Of a stretch of 55,619 nt of DNA, positions 1 to 1,759 are shown piece by piece. The notes beneath the pieces were generated by a model that was not told where the DNA came from, did not search any database, and worked only from the letters and a program-made list of their open reading frames with translations. Source of the stretch: an uncultured archaeon (lineage in GTDB: Archaea > Asgardarchaeota > Lokiarchaeia > Sigyniarchaeales > SOKP01); the NCBI GenBank assembly GCA_964632315.1, contig CAZWEM010000025.1:1-55619 (forward strand), written 5' to 3'. Both the position numbers and the translations under genes were made by a program. The number at the start of each line of letters is the position of its first letter. Within the stretch, counting starts at the first letter, position 1.

Positions 1-1759
1 AAGATCCAATAATAACCGTCTTCATCTCGTCTTGCGCCATCTCCCGTATAGTAATGCCCCGGATATCGATTTAGATAGGTTGATTTGAACCGCTCCGTGT
101 CACCCCAGACATCTCTTAGCATTCCTGGCCATGGATGCACTCAATTTTCTTACTGAAAACTCATTTGTGCCATTGCAAAATATCCCCCCACATTCTCTTC
201 TTCGATTACATCACCTTCTAAATCGAATATAACGGGTTTTATTCCCAGGAATGGTAAGCAGCAGGATCCCGGCTTTGTTGGAGTCGCCGTTGCGATTGGA
301 GTCATAATAAAGCCGCCCGTTTCTGTTAGCCAAATCTTTCTAAATGAACGATTTTTTTGCCAATAAGTATCGACAATGGGCGCTTTACCTTTTCCTATTT
401 TGTAAAAGTACCAAGTCCAGGCTTCGGGGTTTTTCCCGAATACGAATAAGTTTTTCGTATTTATCGGTTCCCCAACAGTGCCTAAGATTCGGATAGAGCT
501 AAGATCATGCTTATTAACTGGCTCTTCACCATAACGCATTAACGCTCTAATTGCAGTTGGAGCTGTATAAATTCCCATTTCAGGACGAATCATACTGAAA
601 TATTGAGTTACCTTGTGTCTTTCGACTATATCCCAAAAGCGGTCTACTTTTACCCCACTTGGAAGAGATTTCCAATTGAAATTACTTGTGACTGGGTATG
701 TAGGCACGCCTTCGTACATCAAGGTCGTAGCTCCATTCGCAAGAGGTCCATATACAATGTAGGAATGTCCGGTGATCCAGCCTATATTTCAGCTGGTATT
801 GGTGAAGTACCAATTCCATCTGCTGTACAATACCAGACATCGCCATCCTTGTAGTTAAAGACGACTTTATGGGTGTAGGACGTGTATAAGATGTATCCCG
901 CGGTGGTATGTTTGACCCCTTTTGGTTTTCCGGTGGTCCCGCTCGTATAGAGAATGAAGAGAGTATCTTCAGAGTCCATGTGCTCGGGTTCGCATTCCTC
1001 ACTCATTCCCTCAATGAAATCATGGTACCAGATGTCTTTATCAGTATGCGGTACGTCATTTCCACTATGCTTGACCACGATCACGTGTTCAATAGTGGGC
1101 ACGTCGTCGATGATTTGAACGACGTCAGCCATTTTCGGATAAAATTTCCCAGCACGTACCGTTTGATCGCTGGTGAACAGCAGTCGAGAGTCTGAATCTT
1201 CAATCCTGTCCTTGACGGCTTCTTTCGAGAATCCACCAAATACAATGGAGTGAATGACACCAATTCGGGCACACGCGAGCATGATAATGGCGAGTTCGGG
1301 AATCATTGGCAACCAGATGGTTACCCTATCACCTTTTTTCAAGCCCAGTTTTTTCATGCCGTTAGCAGCTTTAGAAACCTCTGCGAGTAGTTCCTTGTAA
1401 GTATATTTACGCACTTTACCAGGTTCATCAGCTTCCCAGATGAGAGCTGTATGGTCACCTTTTCCGTTTTTCACGTGTCGATCCAAGCAATTGTATGCTA
1501 CGTTGAGTTTACCGCCAACAAACCATTTTCCTGGAAACAGGTCGGTTTTTTCCCAGACTTTTTCGTAGGGCGTGAACCAATCGAGTGATTTCGCTTGTTC
1601 TCCCCAGAATCCTTCCATGTCTTCGATGGATTCCTTGTAAAGCTTTTGATATTCCTTGAACGACATTCCAGTTGCGGCGTAATCTGGGTTGAGGTCTCGT
1701 GGGTCGAACTTCCTTGTTTCGGTTAGGATGCTTTCCATTTTTGAGTCTTTTTCTGACAT
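1..1759 (-). CDS. acs: AMP-forming acetyl-CoA synthetase, split by six BHB introns; 3' end runs off the window. Exons: 1759-820, 787-692, 649-602, 571-463, 432-356, 325-165, 134-<1
   Basis: ORFs 782..1759 and 150..722 plus downstream sequence give ACS motifs [57 protein letters not shown] and [17 protein letters not shown] once six short inserts are removed. Exon lengths 940/96/48/109/77/161 keep the frame. Confidence 0.95.
135..164 (-). other. BHB intron 6 of acs (30 nt, contains in-frame TAA and TGA)
   Basis: GCAATG-GCAC-AA^A-TGAGTTTTC...GAAAATTGA-GTGC-AT^C-CATGGC: perfect GCAC/GTGC helix. Splicing gives AMAQPWPGML. Confidence 0.93.
326..355 (-). other. Relaxed BHB intron 5 of acs (30 nt, in frame, no stop)
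   Basis: TT-GGCA-AA^A-AAATC...GATTT-GGCT-AA^C-AG, with one A-G mismatch. Splicing restores DTYWQTETGG. Confidence 0.87.
433..462 (-). other. Relaxed BHB intron 4 of acs (30 nt, in frame, no stop)
   Basis: GGGGA-ACCG-AT^A-AATACGAA...TTCGTATT-CGGG-AA^A-AACCCC, with one A-G mismatch in the central helix. Splicing restores VGEPINPEAW. Confidence 0.87.
572..601 (-). other. BHB intron 3 of acs (30 nt, in frame, no stop)
   Basis: GTAA-CTCA-AT^A-TTTCAG...CTGAAA-TGGG-AA^T-TTAT. Splicing creates a TTT codon and restores KVTQFYTAPT. Confidence 0.92.
650..691 (-). other. BHB intron 2 of acs (42 nt, in frame, no stop)
   Basis: CTACAT-ACCC-AG^T-CAC...GTG-GGGT-AA^A-AGTAG. Splicing gives TYPEVDRFW, matching the spacing of typical YPDPDRFW. 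Confidence 0.87.
788..819 (-). other. BHB intron 1 of acs (32 nt, frameshifting)
   Basis: TTGTA-CAGC-AG^A-TGG...CCA-GCTG-AA^A-TATAG: perfect 4-bp helix CAGC/GCTG, two 3-nt bulges and flanking helices. Splicing gives GCA GAT ATA GGC TGG (ADIGW). Confidence 0.93.

Follow-up and report, generated by a model that had tools for sequence, protein, structure and literature searches.

A stop-containing 30-nt insert in an Asgard archaeal acetyl-CoA synthetase gene is very probably a tRNA-type mRNA intron

The 30-nt insert at positions 135..164 (minus strand) of an acetyl-CoA synthetase gene (acs) from an uncultured archaeon of the Lokiarchaeia is very probably a genuine mRNA intron of the kind found in archaeal tRNAs, spliced by EndA and RtcB, and it is the last of six inserts in this gene. 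More broadly, it appears likely that some Loki-type Asgard archaea possess a true exon-intron structure, with up to seven enzyme-spliced introns in a housekeeping mRNA, excision by the tRNA-splicing enzymes, clustering of the introns in the gene's 3' half, and exchange by recombination without an intron-encoded mobility gene. The stretch of DNA analysed, hereafter the window (55,619 nt), is the entire contig C25 of a 4.45-Mb MAG. The acs gene lies on the minus strand, starts with an ATG at 1759 and runs off the contig start at position 1 of the window; its relatives are labelled mostly as Promethearchaeota/Lokiarchaeia. A stretch of about 68 nt recurs upstream of two genes, an upstream stretch of L213 matching both 1761-1991 and 3939-4006 of the window.

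Inserts were called against L016, an uninterrupted ortholog of 660 aa from the same genus. The alignment contains six inserts and otherwise zero internal indels; with the six taken out, the gene encodes a 660-aa ACS with every motif checked, PKTRSGK included, and zero nonsense or frameshift changes across its 660 codons. All features lie on the minus strand. Exon 1 (820..1759, counted from the ATG) carries the ACAS_N and AMP-binding domains and is followed by intron 1 (788..819; 32 nt, frameshifting, canonical BHB), exon 2 (692..787; 96 nt), intron 2 (650..691; 42 nt), the 48-nt micro-exon 3 (602..649), intron 3 (572..601; 30 nt, BHB) and exon 4 (463..571; 109 nt). Introns 4 (433..462; 30 nt, three of four central pairs) and 5 (326..355; 30 nt, interrupting the YWQTETGG motif) both have relaxed BHBs and are separated by exon 5 (356..432; 77 nt). 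Exon 6 (165..325; 161 nt) leads to intron 6 (135..164; 30 nt), a phase 0 intron between the Gln477 and Pro478 codons with a canonical hBHBh' arrangement, and the in-window part of exon 7 (1..134) continues on contig C79 and in L277. Five of the six introns end in AA, four of them with a preceding G-rich run, and intron 6 ends in AT. Gene callers cut acs into three ORFs and read the in-frame introns as false peptides. No second close copy of acs was found elsewhere in the genome.

No intron lies downstream of intron 6 in the host lineage, whereas relatives have a seventh. This intron, at CDS position 1509 just before YTGDGA, was seen in L124, L125, L207-L209, L012 and L015, is 29 or 32 nt long and frameshifting, and is absent from the host genome. 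Intron 2 also has variants: an alternative site 6 nt downstream holds a 33-nt form that never occurs together with the 42-nt form, and in L048 intron 2 (CDS position 1030) is 60 nt long, the ends being unchanged and the extra length lying in the interior.

The initial annotation had described intron 6 as a 30-nt insert with in-frame TAA and TGA inside a canonical BHB, and both the alignment to L016 and a register test confirmed this. The TAA (150..152) falls in the apical loop and the TGA (141..143) in the 3' stem arm. Among 13 registers tried, only 164..135 gave the full BHB, with 3-nt bulges at 164..166 on the 5' side and 134..136 on the 3' side. Its central helix joins the exon-6 strand 167..170 to intron bases 140..137 (four of four pairs Watson-Crick), its exon-exon helix pairs 131..133 of exon 7 with 171..173 (3 bp, plus 2 past one mismatch), and its intron stem forms eight of nine pairs and closes a 5-nt apical loop. 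The G.G mismatch sits at the second intron-stem pair, and the same base creates the TGA. Cutting after bulge base 2 on both strands restores AMAQ|PWPGML, and the ACS frame resumes, as had been claimed, at 134 and stays open to the contig end. The registers 169..140 and 163..134 were rejected, having no intron stem or a wrong residue.

When the insert was shuffled between fixed exons, the pairing score of intron 6 was equalled by about 1 in 100,000 shuffles (p ~1e-5). The corresponding values for the other five inserts are at most 5e-4 each (intron 5, 5e-4), and the score of intron 4 was reached by 0 of 200,000 shuffles. Thermodynamic prediction is less discriminating: the BHB of intron 6 lies 0.6 kcal/mol above the predicted minimum, the pair probability of its central helix is about 0.2-0.3, and single-sequence folding fails to pick it out (z -0.27). 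On these predictions, folding energy alone is no proof of the BHB. Scans for tRNAs, promoters and terminators gave nothing relevant. A spliceosomal intron was rejected on the insert ends, which are AT..AT for intron 6 and TC..AA for the RNA-supported intron 2, and neither GT..AG nor AT..AC. An archaeal BHB intron carrying a homing endonuclease was also rejected, as 30-42 nt leaves no room for an ORF.

Orthologous inserts provide a second line of evidence. Eight distinct intron-6 sequences were found in orthologs from metagenome assemblies (JGI, ENA, Logan), all at the same site and 30 nt long and differing at up to 13 of 30 bases; the GTDB genomes searched held no other copy. Paired cells make up 95% in these orthologs against 30-40% in slid controls, and compensatory changes occur at two stem pairs. 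Such conserved pairing despite a variable interior supports the BHB, with modest weight as the sequences are related. In L207-L209 the BHB of intron 6 is weak. In nearly every acs insert of the relatives, the register that restores the protein is the one with the best BHB score.

The exon sides of the junctions are similarly constrained. Within 10 nt of the junctions, third codon positions were changed at 5 of 50 sites in intron-sharing pairs, compared with 141 of 411 otherwise (p 3e-4), and the three junction codons are identical in all eight intron-6 carriers as against 1 of 24 intron-free orthologs with Ala-Gln-Pro. These frozen codons fit pairing between exon and intron, although co-transfer with the intron could contribute. 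In one intron-free ortholog (L210, protein P0007), AQSGPG stands where others read AQPWPG at the intron-6 site; the record translates inexactly to its stored protein, and imprecise loss or an assembly error are both possible.

The stops themselves are variable. The TAA is clade-specific, being common to L126, L212-L216, L277 and the host genome, and the TGA was seen in the host genome and L277 only, the closest relatives having G.U in place of the G.G. Five of the eight intron-6 sequences are free of any stop. Each gene with such a sequence has a 29- or 32-nt frameshifting intron elsewhere, so that these orthologs also need splicing. Judging from this comparison, the stops are not a defining feature of intron 6.

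Two metatranscriptome runs, X1 and X2, with strandless contigs, were available for the RNA level. One 151-nt contig of X2 (record 9, depth 2.2) is identical to 602-649 and 692-787 throughout their 144 nt, fusing exon 3 to exon 2, and omits 650-691 exactly, that is, the borders of intron 2 predicted beforehand from the BHB. Its alignment stops at 602, where intron 3 borders exon 3, and at 787, where intron 1 borders exon 2; at both ends the intron base differs from the spliced base, which suggests that introns 1 and 3 had been removed too. All orthologs with up to 19 differences over the same 144 nt have intron 2, those without it that cover the 144 nt in full have at least 22 differences each, and none of the uninterrupted ACS proteins found exceeds 90% aa identity. 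A spliced acs transcript is therefore a much more likely source of this contig than an intron-free allele, with the qualification that it is one low-depth contig from one study. The X1 pieces over the introns carry 7-10 base differences and come from other organisms, and a 42-nt 'skip' among them was not counted. No RNA piece listed in X1 or X2 covers 135-164. Removal at the RNA level, argued for in the initial annotation, was thus seen with an exact junction for intron 2, is suggested for introns 1 and 3, and we infer it for introns 4 to 6, the annotated insert among them.

The splicing enzymes are represented in the genome by two EndA paralogs and a single RtcB. By sequence, EndA alpha keeps the Tyr/His/Lys residues and an L1/CSL-like loop; its best PDB match is 3p1z_B (E 8e-34), a chain of the solved tRNA-splicing endonuclease of Aeropyrum pernix, with the N-terminal loop region aligned. 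EndA beta has no such His, in keeping with a structural subunit. It is clearly unlikely that the insert is removed from the RNA by another nuclease/ligase pair or by self-cleavage, the resemblance to a BHB being incidental. Introns 4 and 5 have only relaxed motifs and the BHB is not the minimum-energy fold, both of which would accord with such an activity, but the RNA junction of intron 2 falls exactly at the EndA register. Intron 6 has no Rfam match at E<=1, and a group I or group II ribozyme would need more than 30 nt; self-splicing introns of both groups were rejected on these grounds. Moreover, Asgard archaea have an (alpha-beta)2 EndA with an L1 loop, and this loop has been tied to relaxed substrates (PMC5829648). 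The L1/CSL-like loop of the host enzyme would fit the relaxed BHBs seen in introns 4 and 5.

Still less likely is an unspliced intron 6, with either a split gene restarting at a GTG in the insert (185 aa) or a ribosome that hops over or reads through it. Gene callers do report a distinct ORF of 185/179 aa downstream of the stop, and purifying selection on exon 7 is compatible with a separate chain; the break, however, would fall within the large N-terminal domain, ahead of GRLDD at residue 523. Readthrough would need recoding of two different stops, as the terminator of acs itself is a TAA. Translational bypassing elements, such as those of phage T4 gene 60 and the fungal mitochondrial byps, likewise place a short stop-containing hairpin within an ORF. 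In acs, by contrast, the take-off and landing codons are unmatched (CAA and CAT), the ends in orthologs vary (TAT, TAC or GAA), the stop is the fifth codon, four codons in and not directly after take-off, and a sister insert is removed in RNA; a bypass element was rejected accordingly. The 32-nt frameshift of intron 1 and the splitting of the invariant YWQTETGG by intron 5 would in any case need removal at the RNA level, as seen for intron 2.

The initial annotation took the intact downstream exon as an argument against decay, and this held. The 3' part of acs, the C-terminal 178 codons, is open on contig C79, gap-free and with 90% aa identity to L016, and degradation by nonsense or frameshift mutations was looked for and not found on C79, L277 or L212-L214. 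C25 and C79 overlap by 120 nt with 2 differences. L277, an independent JGI contig, has the six introns, a base-identical intron 6 with both stops, and an exon 7 open to its stop and equal to the window part; beyond the overlap, C79 departs from it at 60 of 418 nt, almost always synonymously, and may be a sister allele of the C25 gene. As the C25 and C79 pieces may stem from different strains, contiguity of the C-terminus rests on L277 and on L212-L214, which have the same layout, TAA included, on single contigs. The contig break coincides with the point at which the two acs alleles diverge (window 1-120; G000 C79:1-535).

That acs is a pseudogene or decaying copy with a neutral insert is a negligible possibility. 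It would account for the two in-frame stops and for the 81 of 90 covered orthologs without an insert at the intron-6 site, but all exon groups have dN/dS values of 0.03-0.07 and, as noted, the 660 codons hold no other nonsense or frameshift. In lineages sharing the TAA, the dN/dS of exon 7 is 0.028-0.041 at dS ~1.1, similar to that of exon 1 (0.037), and exon 7 differs from that of L212 by 17 synonymous changes and 1 non-synonymous change; the inserts read as codons have a pN/pS of ~1. All six aa differences from the closest database protein are insert-derived residues. Thirteen other database proteins terminate at the same codon as the stop in intron 6, which, together with the conserved pairing and the lack of a second close acs, also speaks against decay. 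An assembly artefact, or presence and absence of the insert at the DNA level in a population expressing only intron-free alleles, is equally negligible: the MAG has 8.6% contamination, its contig breaks 134 nt after intron 6, and the differences between C79 and L277 imply more than one acs allele, but the independent JGI assembly holds the identical 30 nt, variants occupy this site in JGI, ENA and Logan assemblies, and a near-identical intron-free allele was not found. From the sequences compared, decay and assembly error both appear very unlikely.

The distribution of intron 6 is patchy. It is present in 9 of 90 covered orthologs, a proportion biased upward as carriers were fetched with an intron-containing query, and at least four changes are required on the acs tree, where genes with five to seven introns adjoin intron-free sisters. 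All eight acs intron sites lie within CDS 934-1509 of ~1980. Third positions of L056 and L059 differ by 8% in exon 1 and by 46-47% in the intron block; for L012 and L019 the exon 1 value is 0.19 (L056/L059 0.08), as against 0.31-0.57 in the intron blocks across both pairs. The simplest reading of this mosaic is that an intron-rich or intron-free block may have been exchanged by recombination between lineages. Intron 1 of L129/L130 (CDS 934) is identical to that of the host at 32 of 32 bases and has only 2 differences in its 60 flanking exon bases, in genes that are ~79% identical to the host's overall (third positions of L130 differ by 41-54%). The pattern looks as if a single intron and its short flanks had recently been transferred laterally. 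The query used for the PF00078 reverse transcriptase family gave no match in the host genome, so cDNA-mediated intron loss is without support here.

Elsewhere in the genome, comparison of 362 orthologous genes with an intron-poor relative (1.06 Mb) gave three lineage-specific BHB inserts, 2 of them significant and 1 borderline; these counts are a lower bound, introns shared with that relative being invisible. Against these two to three in 362 genes, as a lower bound, acs looks like an intron hotspot. BHB-like inserts of 30-33 nt containing stops were noted at G000 C18:19083-19112, C41:26283-26254 and C6:101582-101550, all in genes without interruption in the relative G008. An ab initio scan of the genome, combining BHB and ORF fusion, gave 168 candidates, no excess over the 179 and 177 of the wrong-frame nulls, and was underpowered; its length filter also drops intron 6, owing to the contig end. 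The same scan listed a 30-nt stop-containing BHB insert at 29359-29388 (minus strand) of the window, with a score of 16 and 2061 nt open downstream.

Under the preferred reading, an EndA/RtcB-spliced intron, the 30-nt insert would fold into a BHB together with the adjoining ends of exons 6 and 7; this fold is predicted and supported by conservation. The two-subunit EndA would cut each 3-nt bulge after its second base and the encoded RtcB would join the exons, by analogy with cbf5 and tRNA splicing. Five further sites would be processed likewise, giving a single mRNA for the 660-aa acetyl-CoA synthetase. Because the insert would never be translated, its interior could drift under RNA-structure constraint alone, and the two stops would be tolerated by-products that make splicing obligatory. 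The acs introns carry no gene of their own, and homologous recombination would move or remove intron-bearing stretches between lineages, leading to the patchy distribution.

If true, a spliceosome-independent multi-intron system exists in close prokaryotic relatives of eukaryotes, and multi-exon protein genes without a spliceosome would be possible in Asgard archaea. Standard annotation would record such genes as fragmented, and since callers split acs and translate its introns, Asgard metabolic reconstructions can take working genes for pseudogenes. The finding may also be relevant to the question of whether interrupted mRNAs were already being processed in the archaeal host of eukaryogenesis. 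It raises the questions of the range of mRNAs processed by EndA, the order of six cuts on a probably translated transcript, and whether splicing gates ACS output.

The closest known system is the pre-mRNA intron of the pseudouridine synthase gene cbf5 in Desulfurococcales and Sulfolobales (Watanabe 2002; Yoshinari 2006; Yokobori 2009, PMC2738675), which is cut after bulge base 2 (PMC2738675). Like it, the acs introns are short, lie within coding sequence, have BHB or relaxed BHB borders with a predicted cut between bulge bases 2 and 3, occur beside a two-subunit EndA, and have a variable interior and lineage-specific loss. As far as can be judged from sequence, intron 6 has every feature of a cbf5-type, EndA-spliced mRNA intron. 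The acs introns differ from that of cbf5 in interrupting a metabolic enzyme gene of another phylum, with six introns per mRNA (seven in relatives) instead of one, exons down to 48 nt, and a patchy spread with signs of lateral exchange. Identity with the cbf5 intron itself was rejected, the host gene being acs and the cbf5 element sitting at the catalytic Asp codon. As of 2020, the archaeal mRNA BHB introns known were that of cbf5 and one Haloferax 5'-UTR intron only (PMC7714728), others having been predicted and unconfirmed (PMC2738675). The Haloferax intron, in HVO_1309 of Haloferax volcanii (Schwarz 2020, PMC7714728), shares with acs an mRNA bearing a BHB, there processed by EndA, but it lies in an untranslated leader, whereas the acs introns interrupt codons and carry stops or frameshifts.

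Within the Asgard superphylum, the multiple non-canonical tRNA introns (PMC11291895; bioRxiv 10.64898/2026.10.13.758758) resemble those of acs, on the accessible parts of both sources, in the several short BHB inserts per gene, repeated gains and an (alpha-beta)2 EndA. Those parts deal with tRNA genes only, the preprint text containing neither 'mRNA' nor 'cbf5', and they name Jordi-, Freyr- and Atabeyarchaeia as the intron-rich families, with Promethearchaeia not among them. The literature searched, which covered few subscription journals, contained no description of BHB introns within Asgard coding sequences, and in that literature archaeal coding-sequence splicing is confirmed for one intron of one gene, cbf5. 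The present analysis itself covered a gene with six introns, selection past a shared stop, covariation in intron 6 (two pairs, in related sequences) and an RNA junction in the same gene.
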